Shown in pieces: positions 9,718-40,572 of a stretch of 64,000 nt of DNA. Below the pieces are notes generated by a model. It ran no database searches and was not told where the DNA came from. It worked only from the letters and a program-made list of their open reading frames with translations. Both the position numbers and the translations under genes were made by a program. How positions within the stretch are numbered: position 1 is the first letter of the stretch; every line of letters starts with the position of its first letter. Location: the sequence record OR062945.1; one strand, 5' to 3'. This DNA comes from Escherichia phage 308Ecol101PP.

Positions 9718-9757
9718 TATAATGACATGGACGGTAAACTAATTAAATGAGAGAAAT

Positions 9758-10393
9758 ATGAAAACTACTCCTATTACTATCGCTATTGACGCAATCATAA
9801 AACAAGCTTCTTCTTTGGCCGCTATGGCCAAAGTAATTAGTCAAAACCCTGCTCGTTATAATGCTATTCTAGAAACTCTTCGACGCCCAGGACTTAGTAA
9901 TTATGAAAGCCGAGTAATTATTACAGGTGTTGGTAAGAATGCTAATATTGCAACTAAAGCTTCTGAGACATTTGCTTCACTTGGTATCCCGAGTATGTAC
10001 TTGAACACTGGGCATTATTCTCACGGTGATGCAGGATTCATTGCGCCTAATGATGTGTTGATTCATATTAGTCGTTCTGGTAAAACTGAAGAAATGATAG
10101 GCGTGGCTAAGCATCTTAAAATGATTCGTCCGAACGTCAAACAGATTCTGTTGCATTGTAACCCGGACATTCCACAAGAATACGAAGCTCTTTTTGATTA
10201 TACGTTCTGTACAGGCATCGCAGTAGAGGTTGATGAGAATTCTCTGGCTCCGACCATGTCCACTACATTGTTGTTAGCGCTTATCGATACGTTTGCTATC
10301 AACCTTTCGTCTGAACGTGGATTTACCTCTAATGACTTCCTTAAGTTCCACCCTGGTGGTGCACTAGGTGCCATGTTACGAGGCGAACAATGA
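9758..10393 (+). CDS. SIS-domain sugar-phosphate isomerase, KdsD/GutQ-type (arabinose-5-phosphate isomerase-like), no CBS domains
   Basis: 211 aa; motifs TGVGKNANIATKASETFASLG, HGDAG, SRSGKTEE typical of KdsD-type SIS domains; not a T4 gene. Confidence 0.7.
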   Translation: MKTTPITIAIDAIIKQASSLAAMAKVISQNPARYNAILETLRRPGLSNYESRVIITGVGKNANIATKASETFASLGIPSMYLNTGHYSHGDAGFIAPNDVLIHISRSGKTEEMIGVAKHLKMIRPNVKQILLHCNPDIPQEYEALFDYTFCTGIAVEVDENSLAPTMSTTLLLALIDTFAINLSSERGFTSNDFLKFHPGGALGAMLRGEQ

Positions 10394-10574: not shown

Positions 10575-12260
10575 ATGAAAAAAGCTGTTATTCTTGGTGC
10601 TGGACTGGCAACTCGTTTGTATCCAATAACGCATCATATTCCTAAGGTGCTTGTTAACTATAAACAAGACACTATTCTGAGCAATTTGTATACAATTTAT
10701 TCTGACCTTGGCGCAGATGAAATTATTGTAGTAGTTCATTCAAAATTTGCTGAAACTGTTCGAGCTTATTGTGAGCAAGAAGGGTTCAATGTGACTATTC
10801 GTACAGTTGATGAAGCGTATGGTTCTGCTTATGCTCTTGCTAAATTGCACAAAGATTTAGACGGCCATAATGTAATTGTTAACTGGTGTGATATTATTCC
10901 TGATTTTGGTTCGTGGTCTTGGAATGTTAACGCAATCTATGTTAAGGGTGACGAATGTCGATATAATTTCGACGGTGAAAATATCACTAATGTAGGTTCA
11001 ACAGGTGGTAATGTTGTAGGAATTTATCAGTTCAAAGACTGGGAATTCTATATGGGTTCTACTGATGAGGAAATTCATGAATACTGCAAAGGACGTGATT
11101 TCGTAGAATTCCTTTACGGCAGCGCATTCAATAAATCAGAGCTTATGAATCTAATTGATTTAGGTGATATGCCTAAACTTGAAAAAGCTCATGAAGTTCG
11201 TGAACTTAATCGTAGTTTTAATGCAGTTGAAATTGGTGAAGAAACTGTAACTAAATTCGCATTAACCGAACAGGGCCGAGCTCTTCAGAAAGATGAGATT
11301 TCATGGTATCTTAAAGTGAAATCAGATTCAGTTCCTCAGTTAGTTTCTGTTAATGAAAATAACTTTGAAATGGAACGCATTAAAGGTAAGCCGGCATTTG
11401 AATATATTAAATCCAAATCAAGTCTTGCTCGTCCACAAATTGTTGATGCAATTTTAGATGCACTGAAATTCAGCACAGACACTTATTTTGTAAGTCCTGA
11501 AACTGTTCGTCGTGATTTCACTAAAGAATTCTATACTAAAGTTATTGATCGTTGTGAAAGTATTCAACCATTGATTGATTCATTTGGTAAAATCACACAT
11601 GTGAACTACACTAAGATTGGGCGTCTGAAGCCAATGTTGAAACAAGCTTTAGAACACCTTATTCGTTATCATAACCGTTCTCAGGGACAGTACTCTGTTA
11701 TTCATGGTGACCCGAACTTCAGTAATACTATGATTACTGATAATGGTGAAGTCAAGTTTATCGACCCTCGTGGATATTTTGGTGAAACCAAGATTTATGG
11801 GCCAAAATTGTATGATGAAGCTAAAGTGCTTTACGCTGTTTCAGGTTATGATGAATTCAACGCTAATCCGACTTGGGGACAGTTTACTATTGATGAAACA
11901 ACTTGTAATGTGACTATTAACATCAATCCGTTAGTTTACAAATATGGAAAGATGAGTTCGTTTAACGAGTATCATCATTTGGCAGTGGCAATTATCTGGA
12001 TTGCATTAGGTGGTTATTTCAAGAATAATCCACTTAAAGCGGTAGCCGCATATTATAAAGGTATGGAACTTCTGACTAAGCAATTACGTAATATGGGCCG
12101 TGTACTTCAGGACGGCACTATTAGTTATGATGTAGCAGAACCTGTAACGGCTACTCTGATTACAAAAAATCCTGGTAAATGGGTACTAACTGATAAAGAA
12201 ACTGGTGTTTCTTATCGTCCAATCGGTGGCGATATCACTCATCAATGGGAACGAATCTAA
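10575..12260 (+). CDS. bifunctional protein: N-terminal sugar-1-phosphate nucleotidyltransferase (RmlA/GalU-like) fused to C-terminal APH/choline-kinase-like sugar kinase
   Basis: 561 aa; N-terminal GAGLATRLYPIT (RmlA signature G-x-G-T-R-L-x-P-I-T) ; C-terminal HGDPNFSNTMI...IDPRGYFG (Brenner motif plus DxxG of kinase-like phosphotransferases). Confidence 0.7.
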   Translation: MKKAVILGAGLATRLYPITHHIPKVLVNYKQDTILSNLYTIYSDLGADEIIVVVHSKFAETVRAYCEQEGFNVTIRTVDEAYGSAYALAKLHKDLDGHNVIVNWCDIIPDFGSWSWNVNAIYVKGDECRYNFDGENITNVGSTGGNVVGIYQFKDWEFYMGSTDEEIHEYCKGRDFVEFLYGSAFNKSELMNLIDLGDMPKLEKAHEVRELNRSFNAVEIGEETVTKFALTEQGRALQKDEISWYLKVKSDSVPQLVSVNENNFEMERIKGKPAFEYIKSKSSLARPQIVDAILDALKFSTDTYFVSPETVRRDFTKEFYTKVIDRCESIQPLIDSFGKITHVNYTKIGRLKPMLKQALEHLIRYHNRSQGQYSVIHGDPNFSNTMITDNGEVKFIDPRGYFGETKIYGPKLYDEAKVLYAVSGYDEFNANPTWGQFTIDETTCNVTININPLVYKYGKMSSFNEYHHLAVAIIWIALGGYFKNNPLKAVAAYYKGMELLTKQLRNMGRVLQDGTISYDVAEPVTATLITKNPGKWVLTDKETGVSYRPIGGDITHQWERI

Positions 12261-12646
12261 TGCACCGTGTAAAAAACATGCTTAATCTTTGTTTTGATGT
12301 CGATGATTGTATAACAGAGTGGAATAACAATCGTGATTACGTGAACTTCAAACCAGACGTCGAAATGGTGTCTGCCATTAATGCCCTGTATGATGCAGGG
12401 CATACCATAACGCTTTACACTGCTCGCGGTATGAAGTCAGTAGGTCCTGGTCGTATAGCAATTGACATTCTCCCAAGTCTGATTCAGAACTTGGCAAACA
12501 TTGGATTGAAGTACCATAATTTGCTAACACATAAACCAGTATATGATTGGATTATCGACGACAAAGCTATGCGTCCTGACGAATTCAAAGCTCTTATGAA
12601 TAAAGGCGAATTCGAAACATTTAAATCATATAAACCGAATCTATAA
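12260..12646 (+). CDS. small cap-less HAD-superfamily phosphatase-like protein
   Basis: 128 aa from ATG 12260 (TAATG overlap; ORF track starts at 12245); motif I FDVDD, motif II LYTAR, Lys (HKP), motif IV WIIDDK. Confidence 0.55.
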   Translation: MHRVKNMLNLCFDVDDCITEWNNNRDYVNFKPDVEMVSAINALYDAGHTITLYTARGMKSVGPGRIAIDILPSLIQNLANIGLKYHNLLTHKPVYDWIIDDKAMRPDEFKALMNKGEFETFKSYKPNL

Positions 12647-12692
12647 TAATTTAAGTAAGACCTGCAAAAACCATCGCATCAATTAACGTGGG

Positions 12693-13868
12693 ATGCAAAA
12701 AAAAAAAATGAATACTTTTAAAATCGGAACGAATTTTGATTTAGCTCTTCTTGATAAAATCGTAGAGCTCAATAAAACTTATCCTAATAGCTTGATAAAC
12801 GAAGTATACGGCTCTACAAGAGAAATGGCTTTTGTAGCAGCCAGACCTGATTTTAGGCTTCCTGACGTTGACAAAAAGATGTTAGAAGATTACGTTAAAC
12901 GTTGTAACGAATTAGGTATTTGCTTTAACTATACACTCAACACGATAAATCCTGGTTCAAAAAGAGAACTAGTTGAGTGGAAGAAGAAAGCTATTCAGGA
13001 TTATGTTCAGTATCTTTGGTCAATAGGCGTATGGCGTATTACTATCGCTAACCCTGTTGTTATGGAAATTGTTCGTGAAGTCAATAAAGACATTGAGATT
13101 GAAGTTTCAACAATTCTACATGTCGATGCTGTAACTCAAATCAAATACTTGCATGACCAATATAATATCAAAAAGGTCTGCTGTGGAATTCATAAGAACC
13201 GTTCAGTTTCTTTCCTGAAACGTGCAGCAGAGTTTTGTAATAAGAACAATATAATATTTGAAGTTCTTGTAAATGAGTTCTGTTCTAATGCTGGTAAAGG
13301 GTACACAACACATTGTAGCTATCGTGACTCTTGCTATATTTTCCATAGCACCGATGTTACAGTAGATGATGCCAAATCCTTAAATGGATATCCAATGCAA
13401 CACTGTATTAAAGCTCGTGATACAGATCCATTTAACTGGTTGAGAACTCGTTTTGTTCGTCCTCAAGATTTGAAACTTTATAATGATATTGGTATCACTC
13501 AATTTAAAGTTTCAGGACGTACAGGTAGCACCGACTACATTTTAAAAGTTCTTGAAGCTTACGCTTCTGAAAAGTTTGAAGGTAATTTGTTGGAATTGTG
13601 GAAGCCTTTAGAGACCATTTTCACTCTTGAAAATGAGACTGAGTTTTCACATACGGTAAATATTGAAACCTCTTTGTTAGACGGCTTTTTAGAAAAAAGG
13701 TGGTTCAAACATCCAGATTTCGATTGTGCTAATGAAATCTGCGGGACGACGTGTACATATTGTGAAAGATATTATAAACGTCAGTTATCTAAAAATGGGT
13801 TATCAGAAAACTCTATATCTATTATTGATATAACTAACTCTGATGACGCTTTGAGGTACCCAGAATGA
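12693..13868 (+). CDS. U32-family (peptidase U32 / UbiU-UbiV / RlhA-like) putative Fe-S protein
   Basis: 391 aa; U32-like blocks (ICFNYTLNT; EVLVNEFCSNAGKGYTTHCSY; FKVSGRTGS resembling the K-I-E-G-R motif); C-terminal CxxxCxxC (CGTTCTYC); alternative start ATG 12708 after an A12 run. Confidence 0.55.
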   Translation: MQKKKMNTFKIGTNFDLALLDKIVELNKTYPNSLINEVYGSTREMAFVAARPDFRLPDVDKKMLEDYVKRCNELGICFNYTLNTINPGSKRELVEWKKKAIQDYVQYLWSIGVWRITIANPVVMEIVREVNKDIEIEVSTILHVDAVTQIKYLHDQYNIKKVCCGIHKNRSVSFLKRAAEFCNKNNIIFEVLVNEFCSNAGKGYTTHCSYRDSCYIFHSTDVTVDDAKSLNGYPMQHCIKARDTDPFNWLRTRFVRPQDLKLYNDIGITQFKVSGRTGSTDYILKVLEAYASEKFEGNLLELWKPLETIFTLENETEFSHTVNIETSLLDGFLEKRWFKHPDFDCANEICGTTCTYCERYYKRQLSKNGLSENSISIIDITNSDDALRYPE

Positions 13869-14863: not shown

Positions 14864-15762
14864 TGGCTATTTTCCGCGTACCTATCTTGAGTATGCGGTC
14901 TTATGAAACTGGACAGTATGCTATCCTTAAGGATGGCAACTTCCAACTTCATTTGCACCGTGCTAATCCGGGTGATGTGATTACATATCCACGTAATGCA
15001 TCTGATATTAAAGAATGCGAACGTCTTTTTCCAGAATTTAAGTTTGTTCCATTATGGTATAAAGATAACGCGTATAACACTCGTAAATATTTCTGGTCTG
15101 AAAATGAATTTGTGGTTGATTCATTAATTGCTTATTATGATTGTGATTTTCTAATCACAGATATCACTGGATATGACGGCGCTTTTGATGTGGAATTCAA
15201 TTTCAATATCACTGCAGACCCTAATAAACCACGTTTTTATATTGACGAATTCTTAAAAACCGACATGTTGTCGGTTAATCGTTCACTTCAAACTACTGTG
15301 TTGAATGAACGTCAAAAAGAAGTGCTGGTTAACGCAGGTGCAGATGGTAATAAGATTATCGTAACCCAGAAAGTTATACGTCCTTCCATCATGCAGCGTC
15401 TTGTAGGTGATTTGGCTCCTATTCATCTAGATGGTATTTTTCATCCATTTCGAATTAGTGACCCGTGCTATCGTTTTGAACAAGTGGTTGAATGTGCAAT
15501 TCAATTAGGTCAACCGCTTTATATAACTGATCCAAATAATAGTTTCGACAGAAATAAGTATCCTGAAGAAGCGCTGATTCGAATTTTTAATCCAACTAAA
15601 ACTGAGTACTATCAAATTCTTAAAGGACGTCCGAAGATTCAATATTTCGAAAATCCTGAAGAAGTATTCCATCCAGGTCTTGGTGAGTTCATCTACTTTA
15701 ATGCTTTAATTTCTTCGCCGTATAATATACCTAAATACGAAGATGTCGTAATCGAGGAATAA
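14863..15762 (+). CDS. hypothetical protein in the position of T4 beta-glucosyltransferase (299 aa), no recognisable similarity to beta-gt
   Basis: TAATG coupled start after gene 42 homologue; no motif recognised. Confidence 0.5.
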   Translation: MAIFRVPILSMRSYETGQYAILKDGNFQLHLHRANPGDVITYPRNASDIKECERLFPEFKFVPLWYKDNAYNTRKYFWSENEFVVDSLIAYYDCDFLITDITGYDGAFDVEFNFNITADPNKPRFYIDEFLKTDMLSVNRSLQTTVLNERQKEVLVNAGADGNKIIVTQKVIRPSIMQRLVGDLAPIHLDGIFHPFRISDPCYRFEQVVECAIQLGQPLYITDPNNSFDRNKYPEEALIRIFNPTKTEYYQILKGRPKIQYFENPEEVFHPGLGEFIYFNALISSPYNIPKYEDVVIEE

Positions 15763-15763
15763 A

Positions 15764-16312
15764 ATGGTTAAAATTATTTTAGTAGATGGCCCGGATAATG
15801 CCGGTAAAACAACTTTCATTAATGACATAATGGAAATTAGTGAAAGATATGTAAAGATTGATTTCCCTAAACGAACAGTTGATGGACGTTTCGATGTTAA
15901 GTCTCGAAATGAAGTTGGCTGTTTCGAAACGATGTTGAATTATTTAGACCCTACTAAGATTTATCTGTTAGACCGTGGATATATTAGTAACTGGGTTTAT
16001 GGACGTATTCGACAAGATGCGGACTCGGTTCTTGACGTTTATGAACAGGATTATGTTCGTCTTTGCCAAAACCATGATGTGTTCACAATTATTTTAACAC
16101 GTAACGAAATGACTGAAAGTTTTGAAGACGACCTTATTACTTTGTCTTCATTCGGTTTTAATACAGTCATTTCATATTTTGAAGAGTTTGCAATTCATAA
16201 CAAAATCCAAACGTATCAATTACTTAATCATGACGGTGCTAACAAAGTTATAGGATTTAATGCAAGCGAACGTAATTATTTGATTACAGAAATTATCAAA
16301 TGGGCTCGTTAA
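15764..16312 (+). CDS. P-loop NTPase, putative nucleoside/nucleotide kinase-like protein
   Basis: 182 aa; Walker A LVDGPDNAGKTT at N-terminus, size typical of dNMP/dNK kinases. Confidence 0.5.
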   Translation: MVKIILVDGPDNAGKTTFINDIMEISERYVKIDFPKRTVDGRFDVKSRNEVGCFETMLNYLDPTKIYLLDRGYISNWVYGRIRQDADSVLDVYEQDYVRLCQNHDVFTIILTRNEMTESFEDDLITLSSFGFNTVISYFEEFAIHNKIQTYQLLNHDGANKVIGFNASERNYLITEIIKWAR

Positions 16313-19399: not shown

Positions 19400-19429
19400 G
19401 TTTACATCTTCCTCTAGGCATGATACGAT
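19400..19429 (+). promoter_or_regulatory. putative early promoter
   Basis: GTTTAC at 19400-19405, weak -10 TACGAT about 18 nt downstream. Confidence 0.35.
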
Positions 19430-25297: not shown

Positions 25298-25534
25298 ATG
25301 GGTGGTTATGTAAACATCAAAACCTTTACGCATCCTGCTGGTGAAGGTAAAGAAGTTAAAGGTATGGAAGTTTCTGTGCCGTTTGAGATTTATTCAAACG
25401 AACATCGGATTGCAGATTCTCATTACCAAATCTTTCCATCAGAAAAGGCAGCTTATTCTACTGTAGTTTCTGATGCAGCTGACTGGAAAACTAAGAACGC
25501 TGCAATGTTTACCCCTACACCAGTAAGTGGTTAA
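25298..25534 (+). CDS. soc: Soc small outer capsid protein
   Basis: 78 aa; YVNIKTF..., AHYQ/SHYQ, FPSEKAAYSTV match T4 Soc as recalled; late promoter upstream, terminator downstream. Confidence 0.8.
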   Translation: MGGYVNIKTFTHPAGEGKEVKGMEVSVPFEIYSNEHRIADSHYQIFPSEKAAYSTVVSDAADWKTKNAAMFTPTPVSG

Positions 25535-25543
25535 ATAATTTAA

Positions 25544-25570
25544 GGAATCCTTCGGGGTTCCTTTTTTTTT
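25544..25570 (+). terminator. intrinsic terminator, UUCG hairpin plus T9
   Basis: GGAATCC-TTCG-GGGTTCC followed by TTTTTTTTT. Confidence 0.8.
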
Positions 25571-25579
25571 GTTTCTACA

Positions 25580-25609
25580 GTTTACAAACACTAAAAACTG
25601 TGTTAAGAT
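25580..25609 (+). promoter_or_regulatory. putative early promoter
   Basis: GTTTAC with TAAGAT about 18 nt downstream. Confidence 0.4.
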
Positions 25610-26067: not shown

Positions 26068-26243
26068 ACAAGATAGTTAAATGGTTTAAAAGCTGGGACG
26101 ATGGTGTCGGTCCAGAAGATTGGCTGGATGTTCTTGAAGAGAATATGGCTAAAGAATTCCAGAAACATGAAGAAAAGCTCGTCGAAGATGAAGGCGAACG
26201 TATTGTAAAACTTTATATGGGTGAACCATCGAGGAAATTATAA
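26064..26243 (+). CDS. hypothetical protein (59 aa)
   Basis: ATGA-coupled start; ORF track begins at 26037. Confidence 0.35.
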   Translation: MNKIVKWFKSWDDGVGPEDWLDVLEENMAKEFQKHEEKLVEDEGERIVKLYMGEPSRKL

Positions 26244-26707
26244 TGGATGCTATGCTATTTAAAATGTATTTGCTTGAAGCCAAGTCATTTAAACATATAC
26301 CAGTGGAAGATAAGACTCCACTAGAAATAGCTATTCTAATTAACAAAAGTCTAAATAATCCGCAATATATCGTAGAAGAATTCTGCAAATTGCAGATTCC
26401 TAAAGGTTACAAAATTCGTGTAGAGCGAGTTGGAGCTATTACTCGTTCTAAAAATTCTCCGTTTAGTCTTGAAGAAGGCATAAAGGACTTAGGTTATGAA
26501 TCTACGGAAAATGCCGTTTATGTGAATCCTGAAAAGCGTTTAGACCTGTTTGAAAAGCGAGACCATAAGTATTTTGCCAAAAAATACTTTATTACATCAT
26601 TAGCAGATTTAATCCATTTGCAACGAGCTATTTGGAAATTTTTTAAGACAAAAGGTGTAGCACTAGAAACATTCTCTGAACCGGCTAGTTTTTATCTAGG
26701 TGAATAA
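26243..26707 (+). CDS. hypothetical protein (154 aa)
   Basis: TAATG-coupled start. Confidence 0.5.
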   Translation: MDAMLFKMYLLEAKSFKHIPVEDKTPLEIAILINKSLNNPQYIVEEFCKLQIPKGYKIRVERVGAITRSKNSPFSLEEGIKDLGYESTENAVYVNPEKRLDLFEKRDHKYFAKKYFITSLADLIHLQRAIWKFFKTKGVALETFSEPASFYLGE

Positions 26708-26708
26708 T

Positions 26709-26888
26709 ATGGACCTTATGAGTATGTTTGACGAGCCTGAAGTTGAGGCTCCTAAAGTGCATCGTAGTGAACTTATTGATGAACTAGATAGTATTATACA
26801 ACGACACGGCTTTAGTTTACCTGTTGAAGCCCTGAAAGACCTTGCATCTTATTATGACGACCCTCCACCATGGAGTCCTTGGAAATGA
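26709..26888 (+). CDS. hypothetical protein (59 aa)
   Basis: ATG 26709 after TAGGTGA; ORF track begins at GTG 26700. Confidence 0.4.
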   Translation: MDLMSMFDEPEVEAPKVHRSELIDELDSIIQRHGFSLPVEALKDLASYYDDPPPWSPWK

Positions 26889-27049
26889 AAGAGAAATTGA
26901 AAGAGAAATTCTTACTAGAAATCAAGGAAAAAGACTTTGAGACATGGTATCGAATGGTGAAAGGGCTGACATTGCTTTTTAAAGCATCGTTATTCATGTT
27001 AGAACAACCTGGTCCTGATGGGCCTTTAGTAGGAAAGCTTAAAAAGTAG
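26885..27049 (+). CDS. small hypothetical protein (54 aa)
   Basis: ATGA-coupled; contains direct 12-nt repeat GAAAGAGAAATT x2 at start. Confidence 0.3.
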   Translation: MKEKLKEKFLLEIKEKDFETWYRMVKGLTLLFKASLFMLEQPGPDGPLVGKLKK

Positions 27050-27077
27050 TTTACATTCCCTCCTCTCGTGTTATGAT
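27049..27077 (+). promoter_or_regulatory. early promoter
   Basis: GTTTAC, 17-nt spacer, TATGAT, AGGCTTATC. Confidence 0.5.
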
Positions 27078-27104
27078 AGGCTTATCTTTAAATGGAGGTC
27101 TATC

Positions 27105-27686
27105 ATGACATGTCAATCTGAACTTCAAGAACGTGAATACCTAACAAATCTGATTGATAGCAAATTCACCCGCCAAGAACAAAACATTCTCTGGGCTTGC
27201 ACCGATTCTAAGGAAGACCCAGATTTCCACTATGAATTAGACCATCTTGTTCGTAAGCATATGACTTCTACAGTACCAGTAGAACTCTACCGTGGTGTAA
27301 CTCCAGAAGAAGTAGAACGTCTTTCCCTTCTTTCTGTGGGATGCCATTGGTCTCCTGGACGAGTAACATCGTTCACAACTGATTTCAGTACAGCTCGTCA
27401 ATTCTCCGGGAGATGGGAATATCAGACGTACACTATTCTTAGTCTCAGGAATGCTCCGTTCATTTTTGATTACTACCAAAACATGGTTAACATTGTACTC
27501 GCCGGAAAGAACCCTAAGCATGTTATGGAAGAAACTCGTATCGATGTCCTAGATATGATTGAATCTGAGCAAGAGTACATGGTCTCAGGTATCTCTAGAT
27601 TTGAGATTGTGGAAATTGAAGACTTAGAATATGACCCTTTATCTCGGTTATACAAAATCATTCATTTGAAAATGTTGAATTTTTAG
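27105..27686 (+). CDS. ADP-ribosyltransferase, ModA/ModB-like (R-S-E class), paralogue 1
   Basis: 193 aa; LYRG (Arg), SFT (S-x-S), EYMV (Glu) ; paralogous to next gene; T4 modA/modB position upstream of dda. Confidence 0.6.
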   Translation: MTCQSELQEREYLTNLIDSKFTRQEQNILWACTDSKEDPDFHYELDHLVRKHMTSTVPVELYRGVTPEEVERLSLLSVGCHWSPGRVTSFTTDFSTARQFSGRWEYQTYTILSLRNAPFIFDYYQNMVNIVLAGKNPKHVMEETRIDVLDMIESEQEYMVSGISRFEIVEIEDLEYDPLSRLYKIIHLKMLNF

Positions 27687-27715
27687 TGTACAAACTCTTC
27701 CGATGATGATACTAT
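27686..27715 (+). promoter_or_regulatory. early promoter
   Basis: GTGTAC, 18-nt spacer, TACTAT. Confidence 0.45.
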
Positions 27716-27743
27716 ACCTTTATCAACCATAGGAGAAACCTAA

Positions 27744-28352
27744 ATGTTTATGCCGTATAACGAGTGTGAAATTGAAGAAATGGTTCGTCGTGCTCAAAAC
27801 CCCGAATATCAAGATGTATTGCAGTACGAAATTGATAGTCAATTCAGCGATAATGAACAAAGCGTCCTTTGGCAGTGTATGGAAAACAAGCCAGACTGTA
27901 TTCAACAGGAGTTAAGTTCAATCGTTCGTAGAAATTGGACGTCTTCTGTTCCTGAGACAATGTATCGTGGAATCTCTAAGAAAACTATGGCCACACTCGA
28001 TGATAAAGGCATTGGTAGTATTATTAAATTTGACAGAGTAATGAGCTTCAGCCCAGTGTTCGGTGTAGCGCGTAACTTTGCTTCGTATAATTTTTACGGA
28101 ACATTTAATATGTTCTGCATCAAAGATGCACCATTTGCTTTCAACTTCCGTGAACATATGCTTAATATGATTCTGGCTGCACCATCTTGTGAGTTCAATG
28201 GAGCTTTCCCTGAAGCGACAAGACGGTCTAATGCTAGACTTATATCTGACGAATGTGAATTTATGCTCCCTATAGGGACTACACTGCGTGTAGATTCTAT
28301 TATTCAAGATGGACGTTATACAATCTGGAATCTGTCTATTGTCAGTTACTGA
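27744..28352 (+). CDS. ADP-ribosyltransferase, ModA/ModB-like (R-S-E class), paralogue 2
   Basis: 202 aa; MYRG, SFS, ECEFM motifs; shares N-terminal block (Q..VLW.C...K.D) with paralogue 1. Confidence 0.6.
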   Translation: MFMPYNECEIEEMVRRAQNPEYQDVLQYEIDSQFSDNEQSVLWQCMENKPDCIQQELSSIVRRNWTSSVPETMYRGISKKTMATLDDKGIGSIIKFDRVMSFSPVFGVARNFASYNFYGTFNMFCIKDAPFAFNFREHMLNMILAAPSCEFNGAFPEATRRSNARLISDECEFMLPIGTTLRVDSIIQDGRYTIWNLSIVSY

Positions 28353-28426
28353 CTGAATTGGAATAACCGGATGGAACTCAGAACCATTATAACACATAAA
28401 AAATTAAAGCATTTTATGAAAAAAGA

Positions 28427-28455
28427 GTGTACACTACCTGAGGGCATGATATTAT
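28427..28455 (+). promoter_or_regulatory. early promoter
   Basis: GTGTAC, 17-nt spacer, TATTAT, AAGCTTATC. Confidence 0.5.
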
Positions 28456-28505
28456 AAGCTTATCAGCTAAACGACCTTAACGTCCGTAAGACAGAGGAAA
28501 ATATT

Positions 28506-29252
28506 ATGTTATCAAATAATAAAATTAACAAAATTAATCGTCGTCTTGACCACACCAGAGCTTCTGCGAAGAGACGCTCTAAGGATTTTAACTTAGACTT
28601 TAATTACCTTAAAAACATTCTTGATCAAAAGGTCTGTGCTTACTCAGGTGAATCTTTTAATAACTCTGTTGAAGGTGAGAAATTATCCTTAGAACGTTTT
28701 AATAATGATATAGGCTACATTAAAGGTAATGTTATCCCGGTTAAGAAAAAATATAACACGGCTCGTTCTGATTTAACATTAGAAGAACTTATTGAGAAAC
28801 GCGATGCCATTGCAAGACGTATCGCTAATCCTTCGGCCCGTAAAGTAGAGAAACTTAATCTCGACGAGAAGAAATGGGCCCAAATTAAAAAGGTTTATGG
28901 TACTATTTTAAAAATCCGAGCAAAACGTGAAAATCGTGTTAAGCATATGGCGAACATGATGAAAAATCAACCTTTATCTAACGAATCTAAACTTAGAATT
29001 GTTGCTTTGAAAGCACGCATTAATGGCTCACATCAAGCAGAAGGCCATGAACTTACTAAACTCAACGTTCTTCTTAAAGGCTCTGACTGGAAAACTAAAA
29101 CTAAATTAACTGACGCTGAATCGCTTTTCGATACATATGATAAAGTTATCCAAGGTCTGCAACGTTTTGAAAAGATTGGTTTCATTGGTAAATTAAAATT
29201 GAAACGTGGCTTACCACTTAGCGCATCATTATTCCAACTGATTAAAGGTTAA
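28506..29252 (+). CDS. hypothetical basic protein in the T4 srd position (248 aa)
   Basis: Position between mod genes and dda as for T4 srd; identity not verified. Confidence 0.4.
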   Translation: MLSNNKINKINRRLDHTRASAKRRSKDFNLDFNYLKNILDQKVCAYSGESFNNSVEGEKLSLERFNNDIGYIKGNVIPVKKKYNTARSDLTLEELIEKRDAIARRIANPSARKVEKLNLDEKKWAQIKKVYGTILKIRAKRENRVKHMANMMKNQPLSNESKLRIVALKARINGSHQAEGHELTKLNVLLKGSDWKTKTKLTDAESLFDTYDKVIQGLQRFEKIGFIGKLKLKRGLPLSASLFQLIKG

Positions 29253-29254
29253 TT

Positions 29255-29566
29255 ATGGTTTATGTATATGCAATAGTTTATCGAGATATGGAAGGATTTA
29301 CTGTCCCGGTTCCACTTGATGAGCATCGTCCTGCAGTATTTTTTAGAAAGGATATTGCAGATAAAGTTTTCGATACTTTGAAAACACAGTATAAAACAGA
29401 TTTAAAAATGGGAGTTCTAAGAATGGTTGAAACTCCGCGTAAGTTCTGGTTTAATAAGCTTGAAATGAAACACGTTAAACTAGATGCGGAGACGCAAAGA
29501 TTGTATCAACGAATCCTGGACACAGGCCGTATTGTTAGTATTCCAATTGCAGGGACTTTACGATGA
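29255..29566 (+). CDS. hypothetical protein (103 aa), dda.1 position
   Basis: ORF with SD AAAGG; stop overlaps dda start. Confidence 0.5.
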   Translation: MVYVYAIVYRDMEGFTVPVPLDEHRPAVFFRKDIADKVFDTLKTQYKTDLKMGVLRMVETPRKFWFNKLEMKHVKLDAETQRLYQRILDTGRIVSIPIAGTLR

Positions 29567-30876
29567 CATTTGATGATTTGACTGAAGGCCAGAAAAACGC
29601 CTTCAACGTTGTTATGGAAGCTATTAAAGAAAAGAAACATCATGTAACTATTAATGGACCTGCTGGTACAGGTAAAACAACCCTTACTAGATTCATCGTT
29701 GAAGCCCTTATTTCTTCTGGAGAATCAGGTATTATTTTAGCAGCCCCTACACATGCTGCTAAAAAGGTTCTAAGCAAACTTGCTGGTCAAGAAGCATCGA
29801 CTATTCATAGCATTCTTAAAATCAACCCAACTACATACGAAGAAAACGTATTGTTTGAACAGAAAAAGGTTCCAGACTTAGCCTTGTGTCGTGTACTGTT
29901 ATTTGATGAAGCGTCAATGTGCGACCGTTCTCTGTTTAAAATAATGTTAGCTAGTATCCCTAAATGGTGTACAGTAATTGGAATCGGCGACCGATGCCAG
30001 ATTCGTCCGGTAGACCCAGGCGAATCAACTGCGTATCTAAGTCCTTTCTTCACTCACAAAGACTTCGTGCAATGCAACCTTACAGAAGTTAAACGTAGCA
30101 ATGCACCAATTATTGATGTTGCGACTGATATTCGTAATGGCAAATGGATTTACGATAAAGTAGTTGATGGGCACGGCGTTCATGGATATACAGACCTTAA
30201 ATCGTATATGATGAACTATTTTAACGTCGTTAAAACTCCTGAAGACCTTTTCGAAAATCGAATGATGGCATTCACAAATAAGTCGGTGGACAAGTTAAAT
30301 TCAATTATTCGCCGAAAACTTCTTGAAACAGAAAAACCATTTATTAAAGACGAAGTCATTGTTCTACAAGAGCCATTTACTAAGACATATAAGCTAGACG
30401 GTAAAAATATGACCGAAATGCTTTTCAATAATGGGCAATTCGTTCGTATTCGAGATGCTGTAGAAACGTCTACATTCGTTAAAGCACGTGGTGTTTCAGG
30501 CGAATATATGATACGATACTGGAATCTTACAGTAGAAACATATGGTGATGATGAAGAATACGTCCGAGAGGATATAAAGGTTATTTCTTCTGAAGAAGAG
30601 CTTTATAAATTCAATTTGTTTTTGGCTAAGACCGCAGAAACATACAAATTCTGGAATAAAGGTGGTAAAGCTCCATGGAGCGAATTCTGGGATGCTAAAC
30701 GTATGTTCACTAAGGTGAAGGCACTACCAGTATCAACCTTCCATAAGGCCCAGGGTATGTCTGTTGACACAGCCTTTGTTTATACACCGTGTATCCATTA
30801 TGCCGATTCAGAATTAGCTAAACAGTTATTGTATGTCGGCACAACTCGTGGTCGGTTTGACGTCCATTTTATTTGA
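29563..30876 (+). CDS. dda: Dda DNA helicase (SF1B)
   Basis: 437 aa; Walker A GPAGTGKTT; MTFDDLTEGQKNAFN... and C-terminal YVGTTRGR match T4 Dda as recalled. Confidence 0.9.
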   Translation: MTFDDLTEGQKNAFNVVMEAIKEKKHHVTINGPAGTGKTTLTRFIVEALISSGESGIILAAPTHAAKKVLSKLAGQEASTIHSILKINPTTYEENVLFEQKKVPDLALCRVLLFDEASMCDRSLFKIMLASIPKWCTVIGIGDRCQIRPVDPGESTAYLSPFFTHKDFVQCNLTEVKRSNAPIIDVATDIRNGKWIYDKVVDGHGVHGYTDLKSYMMNYFNVVKTPEDLFENRMMAFTNKSVDKLNSIIRRKLLETEKPFIKDEVIVLQEPFTKTYKLDGKNMTEMLFNNGQFVRIRDAVETSTFVKARGVSGEYMIRYWNLTVETYGDDEEYVREDIKVISSEEELYKFNLFLAKTAETYKFWNKGGKAPWSEFWDAKRMFTKVKALPVSTFHKAQGMSVDTAFVYTPCIHYADSELAKQLLYVGTTRGRFDVHFI

Positions 30877-35092: not shown

Positions 35093-36910
35093 ATGATTAA
35101 AAATGAAATTAAGGTATTGTCAGATGTAGAACATATTAAGAAACGTAGTGGCATGTATATTGGTTCTTCGGCCAAAGAAGCCCACGAGCGTTTTTTGTTT
35201 GGTAAATATCAACAAGTTGAATATGTTCCTGGTCTGGTTAAATTAATCGATGAGATTATTGACAACTCGGTTGATGAAGCTATTCGTACATCATTTAAGT
35301 TTGCAAATAAAATCGATGTGCAAATTAAAAATAATCAAGTTTCGGTGGAAGATAACGGACGTGGTATTCCTCAAGGTTTAGTTACCGACCAAACAGGTGA
35401 ACAAATTCCTGGGCCTGTAGCAGCCTGGACTATTCCAAAGGCTGGTGGTAACTTTGGTGATGACTCTGAACGCAAGACTGGCGGTATGAACGGCGTCGGG
35501 AGTAGTTTAACTAATATCTTCTCTACGTTGTTTACAGGCATAACGTCAGATGGCGAAAATGAAATCACTGTTAACTGTTCAAACGGAATGGAAAACAAAT
35601 CGTGGTCTTCTAAGAAATCTAAAGGTAAAGGCACTAAAGTAATCTTCACTCCTGATTTCTCTTCGTTTGAAGAACATAATTTATCTCAAATTTATTTAGA
35701 TATTACTTTAGACCGACTTCAAACATTGGCAGTCGTTTATCCTGATATCAAGTTCACATTTAATGGTAAAAAGGTTGATGGTAATTTTAAACGATTTGCT
35801 AAACAATTTGGCGAAGATAACATCATTCAAGAAAATGATAAAGTCTCTATAGCATTCACAACATCACCAGATGGCTTCCGTCATTTAACTTATGTGAATA
35901 ACATCCATACTAAAAATGGTGGTCATCATGTTGAATGTGTAATGGATGATATCTGCGAACATCTTTTGCCGGGTATTAAAAAGAAATATAAGGGTATTGA
36001 AGTCACTAAAGCTCGTGTTAAAGAATGTCTCACAATGTTGATGTTTATTAGAGACATGAGCAACATGCGTTTTGATTCTCAGACTAAAGAACGTTTAACG
36101 TCAACGTATGGTGATATTCGTAATCATATCCAATTGGATGCTAAGAAAATTGCTCAGGCACTTCTTAAAAACGAAGCCTTGATTATGCCTATTGTTGAAG
36201 CAGCATTAGCTCGTAAATTGGCAGCAGAAAAGGCTGCAGAAACTAAAGCAGCTAAAAAGGCAACTAAAGCTAAGGTTCATAAGCATATTAAAGCTAACCA
36301 ATGTGGTAAAGATGCAGATACGACATTGTTCTTAACAGAAGGTGATTCGGCAATTGGTTATCTCATTGATGTTCGTGACCGTGAACTACACGGCGGATTC
36401 CCATTACGTGGTAAGGTGATGAATAGCTGGGGTATGTCATATGCTGATATGATGAAGAACAAAGAGCTCTTTGATATCTGTGCTATCACAGGTCTTATTC
36501 TTGGTGAAAAGGCAGAGAACACGAACTATCGTAATATTGCAATTATGACCGATGCCGATCATGACGGTCTTGGAAGTATTTATCCGGCTTTGCTTGCTTT
36601 CTTTAGTAATTGGCCTGAATTGTTTGAACAAGGACGTATTCGCTTTGTTAAAACGCCTGTAATTATTGCACAAATTGGCAAAACTCAAAAATGGTTTTAT
36701 ACTGTAGCTGAGTATGAAGAAGCTAAAGATACACTTCCTAAGCATAGTATTCGATACATCAAGGGATTAGGCTCCCTTGAAAAGTCAGAATATCGTGAAA
36801 TGATTCAGAACCCTGTGTACGACGTAGTTAAACTTCCTGAAAATTGGAAAGAACTCTTTGAAATGTTGTTGGGTGATGATTCAGAACTTCGTAAAGAATG
36901 GATGTCCTAA
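35093..36910 (+). CDS. 39: gp39 DNA topoisomerase II large subunit (GyrB-like ATPase plus TOPRIM), unsplit form
   Basis: 605 aa; GHKL ATPase motifs (IDEIIDNSVDEA, EDNGRGIP), TOPRIM (LTEGDSA, DADHDG); one continuous ORF. Confidence 0.9.
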   Translation: MIKNEIKVLSDVEHIKKRSGMYIGSSAKEAHERFLFGKYQQVEYVPGLVKLIDEIIDNSVDEAIRTSFKFANKIDVQIKNNQVSVEDNGRGIPQGLVTDQTGEQIPGPVAAWTIPKAGGNFGDDSERKTGGMNGVGSSLTNIFSTLFTGITSDGENEITVNCSNGMENKSWSSKKSKGKGTKVIFTPDFSSFEEHNLSQIYLDITLDRLQTLAVVYPDIKFTFNGKKVDGNFKRFAKQFGEDNIIQENDKVSIAFTTSPDGFRHLTYVNNIHTKNGGHHVECVMDDICEHLLPGIKKKYKGIEVTKARVKECLTMLMFIRDMSNMRFDSQTKERLTSTYGDIRNHIQLDAKKIAQALLKNEALIMPIVEAALARKLAAEKAAETKAAKKATKAKVHKHIKANQCGKDADTTLFLTEGDSAIGYLIDVRDRELHGGFPLRGKVMNSWGMSYADMMKNKELFDICAITGLILGEKAENTNYRNIAIMTDADHDGLGSIYPALLAFFSNWPELFEQGRIRFVKTPVIIAQIGKTQKWFYTVAEYEEAKDTLPKHSIRYIKGLGSLEKSEYREMIQNPVYDVVKLPENWKELFEMLLGDDSELRKEWMS

Positions 36911-36930
36911 GCTCCTTCTGGAGCTTCATT
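36909..36930 (+). terminator. possible terminator hairpin after gene 39
   Basis: AGCTCC-TTCT-GGAGCT followed by TCATTTTAATTTT. Confidence 0.35.
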
Positions 36931-36952
36931 TTAATTTTAATAAGGCTTAATT

Positions 36953-38053
36953 ATGAAAGTTATGTTTATCCCATCTCGCGCAGTCCCATTTAATCCTGAC
37001 CGTGTACAAGGTGGTCTTGAAGCAGTACATTTAAATGTGTTGAAATATCTTGTGTCCATCGGTGCTGATATTGATTATATCGGCTTTGATAATGACACGT
37101 TTGGTGACTGGAAAGTTACACACCATCCTGTTGGTCATCTGACTAAATTTAGTCTAGGTATGAGTTATACTATGGCTCGTAAGATTGTTGAACTAGCCGG
37201 CATCCATGAATACGATTTTGTTGTTACTATGGAACCGACTAAACTAACCGTTCAGGCAATTAAAGACGCAGGTCTCTCTAAAGTTCATAAGAATTTTATG
37301 GCAACACCATTTGAACCGGTATCTCGTGGCATTGTTCAAATTTGGGACCAGACTATTCAAATTCATAAGAATGGTGGTAAGAGTTATGCTCCTACTAAAG
37401 CCTTCCGTGAATTTGAACGCAAATATTGTTATATGACTTCAGGTCTGACTGACAAAATTGATTATGATTATTGGCGAGCAAATCCGTTGTTTGAAGCCGA
37501 AGATTATCCGGTTATTTGTTTGAATGAGAAACCTGAAGTTCTTCCGGCGACTGATCTGATTATTAGTGCACAACGTTATGACACTAAAATGCGTCGTACT
37601 GATGTTGCTCTTGAAGCGATTAAAGCACTAGGCGAAAATGGTGTAGGATACTGTCCAAGCAAATGGGCACCACCAGCTAAATATCCTGTTATTATTGATG
37701 CTCCACACAGTGAAATCATGGAACGTCTTAAAACAGCTAAAGCGCTTATTAATACGTGTCCTGACACAGGTACGGTAGAGAATAGTTCTATTGAAGCCAT
37801 CTCTAAAGGTGTCCCTGTAATCCAGTTAGTTTTTAAGGATTATCCTCATGCGACATTCGAATACGACCCAGATACTGTGCGTGTAGAAATTGATTCCTCT
37901 ACTCCTAAGAAAGAAGTAGTTGCGCTTTACACAAAAGCTGTATTAGAATTCACTGACACATACGAAGCTCGAGTTAAACGTGCTGAAGCAGTATGGAAGA
38001 AGTATAACCGAGATGCAGTTGTTGCGATGTGGGATAAAATCTTCACAGCGTAA
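36953..38053 (+). CDS. GT-B fold glycosyltransferase (GT4-like), candidate DNA hydroxymethylcytosine glycosyl (pentosyl) transferase
   Basis: 366 aa; C-terminal GT-B donor-binding pattern CPDTGTVENSSIEAISKGVPVI (E-x7-E); located between gene 39 and rIIA. Confidence 0.6.
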   Translation: MKVMFIPSRAVPFNPDRVQGGLEAVHLNVLKYLVSIGADIDYIGFDNDTFGDWKVTHHPVGHLTKFSLGMSYTMARKIVELAGIHEYDFVVTMEPTKLTVQAIKDAGLSKVHKNFMATPFEPVSRGIVQIWDQTIQIHKNGGKSYAPTKAFREFERKYCYMTSGLTDKIDYDYWRANPLFEAEDYPVICLNEKPEVLPATDLIISAQRYDTKMRRTDVALEAIKALGENGVGYCPSKWAPPAKYPVIIDAPHSEIMERLKTAKALINTCPDTGTVENSSIEAISKGVPVIQLVFKDYPHATFEYDPDTVRVEIDSSTPKKEVVALYTKAVLEFTDTYEARVKRAEAVWKKYNRDAVVAMWDKIFTA

Positions 38054-38145
38054 ATCCTGAATCGCCTGAGGCACTATTACACATAAGATGATAAATTATA
38101 TGGTCTTTAGTAATAGTGCCCTAGGAATCTACTGAAGAGAATATT

Positions 38146-38346
38146 ATGAGAACATATAACGTGGACTTGGAACTTTTTGATAAAGCAGTGCTCCGGGAAT
38201 TCCGGCTTATCCAAAGATTTTTTGATATCGAGTCAGCAGAGTCCTTTAAAGAACGCTTTAAAGAAATTCGATATAAAATACAAACCGATACAGCTACTAA
38301 AGAAGAACTTCTTGAAGTAGCAGAAATTTTTAAACGTAACTTGTGA
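38146..38346 (+). CDS. hypothetical protein (66 aa)
   Basis: SD GAAGAGAATATT; helical small protein. Confidence 0.45.
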   Translation: MRTYNVDLELFDKAVLREFRLIQRFFDIESAESFKERFKEIRYKIQTDTATKEELLEVAEIFKRNL

Positions 38347-38358
38347 TGAGAGAAAAAT

Positions 38359-40572
38359 ATGATTATTGAAACGGCTAAAGAAACGATTATTGGTTCAGGC
38401 GGTAAGAGCACAGCATTTACTATTCAAGGCAATAGCAAAGTTTATAAGATTTTGTCTAATGACCTTTATACAAACAAAGAATTGGCTTGTGTACGTGAAT
38501 TAATCACAAACTGTATTGATGGGCAAATTCTTAATGGTTGCACTGATAAGTTTATTGTTCAGGCTCCAGGTCGTTTAGACCCACGTTTTGTAGTTCGTGA
38601 TTTTGGACCTGGTATGAGTGATTTCACTATTCGTGGTAATGACGAAGAGCCAGGAATTTATAACTCATATTTTGCTTCAACTAAAACATCGAGTAACGAT
38701 TTCATTGGTGGATTCGGACTCGGCTCTAAAGCTCCATTAGCATATACTGATACGTTTAACCTTACGTCTTATCATAATGGTGAAGTTCGTGGTTACGTAA
38801 TCTACCAAGATGACACAGGTCCACAGATTAAGCCGACCTTTGTAGATAAGATGGGTCCTGATGACCGTACGGGTGTAGAAGTAGTTGTACCGGTTAACCC
38901 GGAAGATTTTGAAAAGTTTGCATCCGAAATTGCATATGTTATGCGTCCTCTAGGTGATATTGCAGAAGTTCGTGGTGTTAAAGATATTAAATACTTCCCA
39001 GAATTTGATGATGTATATTTGGCCAAGGAAGCTCCATGGGGTGAACGTGGTAATATCATGGCTGTTTATGGCGGTATTGTATATCCAATCGGAAGTGTTA
39101 TTAAAGAACAAACATGGATGATGACACGATGCACTACAGCTTATATTAAATTCCCAATGGGTGAACTAGATGTTGCTCCGTCTCGCGAAGCATTGTCATT
39201 TGATAAACGTACAGTAGCAAATATCCATAAACGCGTTGCAGAAATCGATGCTAAATTGTTCGCTGAAGATTCTAAGAAATGGATTGATTGTAAATACCCA
39301 CGACATGTGTTCCGCGAAATTGATTCTCTTGGCTATACCGCTCGTAAATACATGGAAAAGGCCGGGTCTAATATTGAATCACTGAAATACTCTAAAGAAC
39401 AACTAACTTATTCTGAGTTGTACAAACGTTTTAAAATGGGACCTGAGTGGTGTAATCTTGGTGTCGTATACGATATCGTTGAATCCCCTCGTCTTCGTCG
39501 TATTCGTGAAAGTGGTAGCTCATCATCAACCATTTCAATTAACAGCCTGATTGGCATTAACATTAAAAACGTTGAAATTGTTATTGACGATGTTAAGGGA
39601 CGCGTTCCATTAATGCGAGCTCTTAATTCAATTGAAATGTCTAAAGACGAGGTTAAATTATCCGGTAAAGTTCCACGCGGTTTTGGTAAAAGCGTACTAT
39701 TCGTTGACCCTACAGACGAAGATGCAATGAAACTTCTGGAACGCCTTAAAGTTATCTTTGATGGCGACAACATTAACATGTACAAGACTTCAGAGCTTTT
39801 ACAAATCGTTAAGCCATGGATTGAAGTCAGGAAACGGACTAATGAGCCTCGTCCTAAATCCCCGAGTGCTCATCGATTCTTTAAGAATGAAAACGATGTT
39901 TGGGTATCAGAAGACCTCTTTATTCCGGCAAGTGAAGCAGATGAAATCCAAGGTTATGCTATAGTTCGTAATCGTTCTAATGCTGAATGTCTTGACGCAG
40001 ATAAAGGTTGGTTGAACTATGACTCCAATTTCTTGACCCGTATTGCTGATTTGTCAGGTATTAAAGAGTTCACTGTAGTTCGTCCACAGATTGCTAAGAA
40101 AGTTCGTAAACTTGGTGAAGTAGAATGCTTGTTCGAAAAATCAATTAATGACTATATTACGCTAATTGATAAAGTGGATTATGATGAGTATGTATCACCA
40201 AGTCGTAGAGCACAGCCTTATTTGAATCATATTACTCGTAACGAAGAGCTTAACTTCCTTAGTAAGTATTTTAGCTCTAAGAACAAAGAAATCAGTAAAG
40301 ACTTTGCAAAACTCTCAACAGTAAATAATCGTTGGGGATGGAATCGATTCGCAGGTGCTACTAATACAGACCTGAATAAGAAGTTAGAATTGTGTGCTAA
40401 AATTTTCGATAAGCTTAAAGATAATGCTTACGATAATGATGATAAAATGGTTATTGAATTCGAAACCAATTATCATATTGTGTCAGAATACATGGGACGA
40501 CGTGGTACTCTTTCCAAAGAACAGGTCGCTCAAATCGTTAAATTCATGAAGGCCGTGGAAGCGGCCAAATAA
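38359..40572 (+). CDS. rIIA: rIIA protein
   Basis: 737 aa; N-terminal GHKL-type ATPase-like motif (VRELITNCIDG, DFGPGM); followed by rIIB; T4 gene order. Confidence 0.8.
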   Translation: MIIETAKETIIGSGGKSTAFTIQGNSKVYKILSNDLYTNKELACVRELITNCIDGQILNGCTDKFIVQAPGRLDPRFVVRDFGPGMSDFTIRGNDEEPGIYNSYFASTKTSSNDFIGGFGLGSKAPLAYTDTFNLTSYHNGEVRGYVIYQDDTGPQIKPTFVDKMGPDDRTGVEVVVPVNPEDFEKFASEIAYVMRPLGDIAEVRGVKDIKYFPEFDDVYLAKEAPWGERGNIMAVYGGIVYPIGSVIKEQTWMMTRCTTAYIKFPMGELDVAPSREALSFDKRTVANIHKRVAEIDAKLFAEDSKKWIDCKYPRHVFREIDSLGYTARKYMEKAGSNIESLKYSKEQLTYSELYKRFKMGPEWCNLGVVYDIVESPRLRRIRESGSSSSTISINSLIGINIKNVEIVIDDVKGRVPLMRALNSIEMSKDEVKLSGKVPRGFGKSVLFVDPTDEDAMKLLERLKVIFDGDNINMYKTSELLQIVKPWIEVRKRTNEPRPKSPSAHRFFKNENDVWVSEDLFIPASEADEIQGYAIVRNRSNAECLDADKGWLNYDSNFLTRIADLSGIKEFTVVRPQIAKKVRKLGEVECLFEKSINDYITLIDKVDYDEYVSPSRRAQPYLNHITRNEELNFLSKYFSSKNKEISKDFAKLSTVNNRWGWNRFAGATNTDLNKKLELCAKIFDKLKDNAYDNDDKMVIEFETNYHIVSEYMGRRGTLSKEQVAQIVKFMKAVEAAK

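Follow-up and report, generated by a model that had tools for sequence, protein, structure and literature searches.

The locus and its relatives

The Mod enzymes of phage T4 are textbook host-takeover factors, and the question raised by two adjacent genes of Escherichia phage 308Ecol101PP (record OR062945.1) is whether they encode such a pair of ADP-ribosyltransferases, which of them corresponds to which T4 enzyme, and how each of them is expressed. The analysis covered a stretch of 64,000 nucleotides, hereafter the window. As developed in the next sections, the two genes, ORF1 and ORF2, very probably encode the ModB-type and ModA-type early ADP-ribosyltransferases, respectively, of a Mosigvirus, i.e., an RB69-like T-even coliphage. 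The interval singled out by an initial annotation, 27105-28352, fits the pair exactly, from the start codon of ORF1 to the stop codon of ORF2. The genes of the region are the following.

26243-26707, mrh-family gene, upstream of the pair (PF24070, E 7e-38)
about 26709-27049, two small ORFs between the mrh-family gene and ORF1
27105-27686, + strand, ORF1, 193 aa, ATG at 27105, stop codon at 27684-27686; predicted ModB-type arginine mono-ADP-ribosyltransferase
27744-28352, + strand, ORF2, 202 aa, ATG at 27744, stop codon at 28350-28352; predicted ModA-type arginine mono-ADP-ribosyltransferase
28506-29252, srd, downstream of ORF2 (PHROG 1400, E 1.4e-99)
29255-29566, dda.1/Y01A gene, downstream
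29563-30876, Dda helicase gene, downstream

Both genes of the pair are intact, and each is preceded by a Shine-Dalgarno sequence, GGAGG located 7 nt upstream of ORF1 and AGGAG upstream of ORF2. The pair occupies the location of the Mod family, between the mrh/modA.x ORFs and srd-dda.1-dda, and the gene order matches the modA.2-modB-modA-srd-dda.1-dda order of T4 when the latter is read in the direction of early transcription. The region 26800-28700 is found at 95-99% DNA identity in 137 deposited phage records, nearly all of them from Escherichia/Shigella phages of the RB69-like genus Mosigvirus (Straboviridae, Tevenvirinae), and the labels used in the matching records are "RNA polymerase ADP-ribosylase", "modA", "modB" or "ribosyltransferase". 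In phage NRG-P0074, for instance, the mod locus is colinear with the window and both genes lie at the same relative coordinates.

Some observations concern the surroundings of the pair. In several GenBank records a neighbouring small ORF (within about 26709-27049) is named 'molybdenum ABC transporter, periplasmic molybdenum-binding protein', which looks like an annotation artefact, apparently because the phage modA.x and the bacterial modA names collide. The record of NRG-P0074, a close relative, includes four annotated homing endonuclease genes (102-956, 2657-3373, 12095-12856 and 36843-37640), together with genes annotated for sugar modification, namely an arabinose-5-phosphate isomerase, a phosphoheptose isomerase and two glycosyltransferases (9608-10243, 12822-13196, 15409-16308 and 37683-38783), which probably have to do with the arabinosyl-hydroxymethylcytosine found in the DNA of RB69-type phages. 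Scanning the entire window for Rfam families and tRNA genes gave no matches.

Catalytic motifs

The initial annotation attributed an intact R-S-E triad to each paralogue, and all of the motifs that it quoted were found, at the following positions.

ORF1, Arg motif LYRG: R63, codon 27291-27293
ORF1, Ser motif SFT: S89, codon 27369-27371
ORF1, Glu motif E-Q-E-Y-M: E155, 27567-27569, and E157, 27573-27575
ORF2, Arg motif MYRG: R75, codon 27966-27968
ORF2, Ser motif SFS: S101, codon 28044-28046
ORF2, Glu motif E-C-E-F-M: E170, 28251-28253, and E172, 28257-28259

An alignment with T4 ModA and ModB, which had been proposed as a check, bears this out, as the four proteins all have the Arg, the Gly next to it, the first Ser and both Glu. 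In a wider alignment of 37 family sequences, R63, G64 and S89 (ORF1 numbering) are invariant, and E155 and E157 are conserved in at least 90%. The residues R63-G64 of ORF1 and R75-G76 of ORF2 align with R73-G74 of T4 ModB, and the double substitution R73A,G74A abolishes the ADP-ribosylation as well as the RNAylation by ModB (PMC10468400). The Glu pairs E155/E157 of ORF1 and E170/E172 of ORF2 align with E163/E165 of T4 ModA and E171/E173 of T4 ModB, and the E165A mutant of T4 ModA loses all ADP-ribosylation (PMC11404850).

One detail of the description has to be amended: a Ser-x-Ser element had been ascribed to both proteins, and the Ser element is indeed present in both, as SFS in ORF2, but that of ORF1, SFT, is Ser-x-Thr, as also occurs in T4 ModB, only the first Ser being invariant. 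Conversely, the statement that the paralogues differ substantially outside the triad holds, since they are only 33% identical over 147 aa (BLASTP, E 1e-27), with 54 identical residues among 186 aligned positions.

Family membership and predicted fold

Both proteins match PHROG 832, 'RNA polymerase ADP-ribosylase', with E values of 6.6e-38 for ORF1 (residues 6-193) and 1e-37 for ORF2 (residues 17-202). The BLASTP comparisons with the T4 enzymes, ModB (NP_049636, 207 aa) and ModA (NP_049635, 200 aa), are given below.

ORF1 with T4 ModB: 38% identity over 160 aa, E 7.5e-28, 91.3 bits
ORF1 with T4 ModA: 26% identity, E 8e-10, 42.4 bits, a weak match
ORF2 with T4 ModB: 31% identity, E 6e-33, 104 bits
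ORF2 with T4 ModA: 30% identity over 199 aa, E 2e-20, 71.6 bits

The 35 homologue clusters retrieved by a profile search all come from T4-like phages, and include proteins with 99% and 96% identity that are already named ribosyltransferase. All of these clusters carry the label PF26816, which comes only from precomputed tags on the homologues; in the copy of Pfam-A searched, ORF1 matched no family and ORF2 gave only a sub-threshold match to DUF6597, and the copy of NCBIfam searched gave no match for either protein. A sequence search of the PDB returned nothing for ORF2 and, for ORF1, matches to nucleophosmin (E 0.02) that were discarded as spurious. No solved structure of a Mod protein was found in this search, so that the fold evidence rests on predicted models.

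AlphaFold2 models of both proteins were built from the 37-sequence alignment, with a pLDDT of 89.9 and a pTM of 0.85 for ORF1, and of 94.2 and 0.88 for ORF2. The best PDB matches of both models are R-S-E ADP-ribosyltransferases throughout, and not proteins of an unrelated fold, so that both are predicted to adopt the ART fold and the ModA/ModB-like identity originally proposed for the pair is upheld by family, predicted fold, catalytic residues and synteny alike. The layout of the active site is canonical in each model. The Arg lies on the predicted β-1 strand in an aromatic-R-G motif (Y62-R63-G64 in strand 60-64 of ORF1, Y74-R75-G76 in strand 72-76 of ORF2), the Ser motif on β-2 (S89-F-T91 in strand 88-91, followed by helix 94-101, in ORF1; S101-F-S103 in strand 100-103, followed by helix 106-113, in ORF2), and the Glu-x-Glu of the ARTT loop at the entry to a later strand. 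In the R-S-E clade, the first Glu of this turn is associated with arginine specificity and the second is catalytic. In both models the catalytic core is preceded by a bundle of four N-terminal helices.

The bacterial R-S-E toxins and effectors with which the models share this fold include Tre1 (6drh), HopU1 (3u0j), Vis (4xzj), CPILE-a (5gtt) and Certhrax (4fk7), i.e., C3/iota/VIP2-like proteins, and the resemblance is structural, as the Mod proteins are only 10-18% identical to them. Unlike these toxins, the Mod proteins are phage early proteins that are small, cytoplasmic and stand-alone; they possess a four-helix N-terminal region of their own and have neither a secretion or delivery domain nor an immunity partner.

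It is common for one copy of a duplicated enzyme to become inactive, and ORF1 is lost in some relatives (see below), which raises the possibility that one of the two proteins is a catalytically dead pseudo-enzyme retained only for binding. This is scarcely credible, because both proteins retain the Arg, the Gly, the Ser, both Glu and the other family-invariant residues, both models are confidently predicted as complete ART folds, and proteins at least 90% identical to each of the two are present in over 130 phage records.

Assignment of the ModB and ModA types

The initial annotation did not say which paralogue is of which type. To distinguish them, a neighbour-joining tree was computed from 201 alignment columns of 42 proteins of the family, with 100 bootstraps, a midpoint root and no outgroup. 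ORF2 falls in one clade with T4 ModA, which is on a long branch, and the second-position genes of Dhakavirus (bootstrap 81), and ORF1 falls in another with T4 ModB, the first-position genes of Dhakavirus and the single-copy genes of Karamvirus and Jiaodavirus (bootstrap 79). Furthermore, the column four residues before the first Glu contains Leu in 14 of 14 proteins of the ModA clade (L166 in ORF2) and Met in 28 of 28 of the ModB clade (M151 in ORF1), and a second column also discriminates between the clades, with F124 in ORF2 and L112 in ORF1. Because tree, discriminating columns and gene position agree, ORF1 was assigned to the ModB type and ORF2 to the ModA type, the latter with moderate support from these sequence comparisons. 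The ModA and ModB clades cannot be told apart by isoelectric point or net charge, which therefore provide no simple electrostatic clue to RNA handling.

ORF1 resembles T4 ModB in coming first in the pair, 3' of modA.2/mrh-like ORFs and with an early-promoter motif before it, and in its R-G, S-F-T and E-Q-E motifs, its tree clade and the clade-specific Met. It is 14 aa shorter, lacking the N-terminal ~12 residues of the T4 protein, and the 'YEDTDGLD' insert that T4 ModB has in the loop preceding the conserved Arg145 is absent from ORF1, ORF2 and T4 ModA. Outside Mosigvirus and Dhakavirus, ORF1 is closest not to T4 ModB but to the mod genes that Karamvirus-like phages carry in single copy (41-47% identity). 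ORF2 resembles T4 ModA in being the second gene of the pair, immediately upstream of srd, in size (202 versus 200 aa), in the alignment of R75, S101, E170 and E172 with R72, S96, E163 and E165, and in the clade and the Leu and Phe columns described above. It differs from T4 ModA in having S-F-S instead of S-A-S and E-C-E instead of E-Q-E, and in having a promoter motif of its own in the 57-nt spacer, whereas T4 modA overlaps modB. Overall, the differences of the Mosigvirus pair from that of T4 are minor.

The ModA orthology of ORF2, and hence RNA polymerase α as its target, is not secure, on account of the bit scores and of the limits of a midpoint-rooted distance tree with bootstraps of about 80. 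Another reading is that ORF2 is not a functional ModA and is instead a second ModB-like enzyme, derived from a separate duplication or from an old paralogue whose target has drifted; then Alt alone, or ORF1, would modify RNA polymerase α, and ORF2 would have other targets. This agrees with the higher score of ORF2 against T4 ModB (104 bits, E 6e-33) than against ModA (72 bits, E 2e-20), although faster divergence of T4 ModA can account for that difference. Comparison of the models does not separate the types, since Foldseek against viral models gave a TM of 0.86 to both ModA and ModB, the score to the T4-type ModA model thus being equal, and the best viral structural match of ORF2 is annotated modB (Serratia phage CBH8, 39% identity). 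The bootstrap of only 81 for the ModA grouping, in a midpoint-rooted tree where T4 ModA is on a long branch, also leaves room for it. Nevertheless, independent duplications would predict that ORF2 groups with ORF1 and T4 ModA with ModB, and neither grouping is seen; moreover, ORF2 adjoins srd as T4 modA does, and at L166 and F124 it agrees with the clade of T4 ModA. A ModB-like ORF2 is thus rather unlikely, and the ModA-type assignment is preferred.

As for the origin of the pair, two mod genes occupy the slot in Tequatrovirus (T4), Mosigvirus and Dhakavirus (JS10), and a single one does so in Karamvirus (CkP1 and PG7; locus coordinates 2462-3085 and 2411-3088) and Jiaodavirus (JD18; 2363-3052). 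The two-group tree, the discriminating columns and gene position argue for one duplication that would have preceded the split of Tequatrovirus, Mosigvirus and Dhakavirus. The single mod genes fall in the ModB clade, suggesting that the ModB type may be ancestral and the ModA type a derived duplicate.

Predicted early promoters

The consensus of T4 early promoters is GTTTAC ... TGn-TATAAT (PMC2988021, PMC1524935), and a motif for the early promoters of this phage was modelled on it, T[GT]TAC-N14-16-TGnTAnnnT. Three consecutive matches to this motif lie before ORF1, ORF2 and srd.

27050-27077, + strand, early-promoter-like site of ORF1: TTTACA-16-TATGAT with TGn, 10/12 in the generic σ70 consensus scan
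27687-27715, + strand, early-promoter-like site of ORF2: TGTACA-17-TACTAT with TGn, 8/12 against the σ70 consensus
28428-28455, + strand, early-promoter-like site of srd, outside the pair and given for context: TGTACA-16-TATTAT with TGn

The site of ORF2 begins directly after the ORF1 stop codon; it fits the early-promoter motif of the phage, and it is missing from the generic σ70 list because its score of 8/12 is below the threshold of that scan. All 17 occurrences of the motif in the window are on the + strand, with none on the - strand; shuffled sequences contain 0.86 per strand, so the count is far above chance. Besides the three sites above, the 17 include those starting at 19401, 19835, 20612, 25581, 33149, 33728, 42366, 42878, 45448, 47946, 61642 and 62104, all on the + strand. 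At nearly all sites, the motif is followed by a conserved start region, ..cTATCAa.., then by a Shine-Dalgarno sequence and then by an ATG, and the set constitutes a usable early-promoter map for this window. The T4-type GTTTAC is replaced by GTGTAC at five of the 17 sites, among them those of ORF2 and srd.

The site of ORF1 is kept in the Mosigviruses vB_EcoM_G2285 and phiC120, and an equivalent is found upstream of modB in T4 and JS10; that of ORF2 is kept in G2285 (as TTTACA), in phiC120 and in Dhakavirus JS10. Thus, as far as the sequence goes, the proposal of the initial annotation that the two genes have separate early promoters is well supported by motifs that lie directly upstream of both genes and are strand-specific in the window, although the promoters themselves are predicted. 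The arrangement differs from that of T4, whose modB and modA genes overlap (ATGA), lack an intervening promoter motif and share a single promoter upstream of both; because of this overlap, T4 has no counterpart of the ORF2 site. In Mosigvirus and in Dhakavirus JS10, instead, a spacer of 54-57 nt (27687-27743 in the window, 57 nt; 2447-2500 in the JS10 locus) separates the two genes and contains an early-promoter motif for the second, which may in this way be expressed independently.

A terminator-like hairpin of 9 pairs, strong and with a T run behind it, is located at 25542-25563, 3' of a soc-like small ORF (25298-25534). In a relative, the homologue of this ORF goes under the label 'virion structural protein', and the same record gives a terminator at the matching site; in the window, the early-promoter motif at 25581-25609 comes directly after the hairpin. 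Three terminator-like hairpins within ORF2 (27923, 28116 and 28279) are weak six-pair stems in coding sequence and were regarded as chance occurrences.

Natural loss of ORF1

In at least two Mosigviruses, G2285 and phiC120, about 447 bp of ORF1 are deleted in frame, the ends of the deletion falling at an imperfect 11-nt direct repeat, TCAATCTGAAC / TGAATCTGAGC (27112-27122 and 27560-27570 in the window). What remains is an ORF of 44-52 aa (2486-2644 and 2309-2443 in the locus coordinates of these relatives) that has lost the Arg and Ser motifs, whereas ORF2 and both promoter-like sites are intact. Consistent with such deletions, proteins at least 90% identical to ORF2 are found in 152 phage records and those to ORF1 in 136, i.e., in about 16 fewer records. 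The occurrence of the deletion in natural relatives indicates that the ModB-type gene is dispensable under at least some conditions, which fits the fact that the mod genes of T4 are non-essential.

Variable presence among close relatives is a pattern common for accessory counter-defence genes, and the Mod family evolves fast, with 30-40% identity between genera. It could therefore be asked whether one or both Mod proteins serve mainly to counter host defences, e.g., by modifying a defence protein with ADP-ribose, as the ART AcrIF11 does with a CRISPR protein; anti-defence functions are thus known among phage ARTs (AcrIF11, PMC12421852). However, the pair sits in the conserved early host-takeover cluster of the T-even phages (mrh, srd, dda), its T4 homologues act on RNA polymerase and on ribosomal and translation proteins (PMC2988021, PMC10468400), and nothing in this analysis points to a defence target. 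A mainly counter-defensive role is thus very unlikely, and a role in host takeover remains the preferred one.

The loss of ORF1 also bears on a scenario in which the tasks of the Mod enzymes would be repartitioned in RB69-type phages as compared with T4, the substrates of ORF2 being other than RNA polymerase α and ORF1 being an accessory, losable enzyme. It draws on the closeness of ORF2 to ModB as much as to ModA, on the separate promoter motif of ORF2 and on the repeat-mediated, in-frame deletion of ORF1, and we consider it improbable.

Proposed mechanism

The literature searched contains no biochemical data on the Mod proteins of this phage or of any other Mosigvirus, and the mechanism was modelled on the T4 precedent (PMC2988021, PMC10468400, PMC9503650), from which we infer the enzymatic activity, the arginine specificity, the targets and the promoter use of the present pair. 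The different host targets that the initial annotation suggested for the paralogues correspond to what is established for T4, and would hold for the present pair by analogy. T4 ModA modifies Arg265 of both RNA polymerase α subunits, and T4 ModB modifies the proteins S1, L2, EF-Tu and trigger factor and also performs RNAylation (PMC2988021, PMC10468400 and the notes of the T4 record).

Right after infection, the still unmodified host σ70 RNA polymerase would transcribe each gene from its own strong early promoter. In each protein, the Arg on β-1 and the Ser on β-2 would hold NAD+ in the R-S-E cleft and the second Glu of the Glu-x-Glu turn would act as the catalyst, so that both enzymes would transfer ADP-ribose to arginine side chains of host proteins. 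Judging from T4 orthology, gene position and the tree clade, ORF2 would most likely modify Arg265 of both RNA polymerase α subunits, blocking the contacts of the latter with UP elements and activators. On the same grounds, the targets of ORF1 would most likely be S1, L2, EF-Tu and trigger factor, and by analogy with T4 ModB this enzyme may also accept NAD-capped RNA for RNAylation.

Significance

The pair is the standard ModB/ModA set of an RB69-like phage, already known and annotated in more than 100 public genomes, and its study has little import beyond correct annotation, with a modest comparative value. The latter resides in the divergence of the natural Mosigvirus and Dhakavirus pairs, which share 30-38% identity with the T4 enzymes and could help to map substrate choice and the ability for RNAylation among ModB-type enzymes, while the natural strains with a deleted ORF1 represent ready-made knock-outs.
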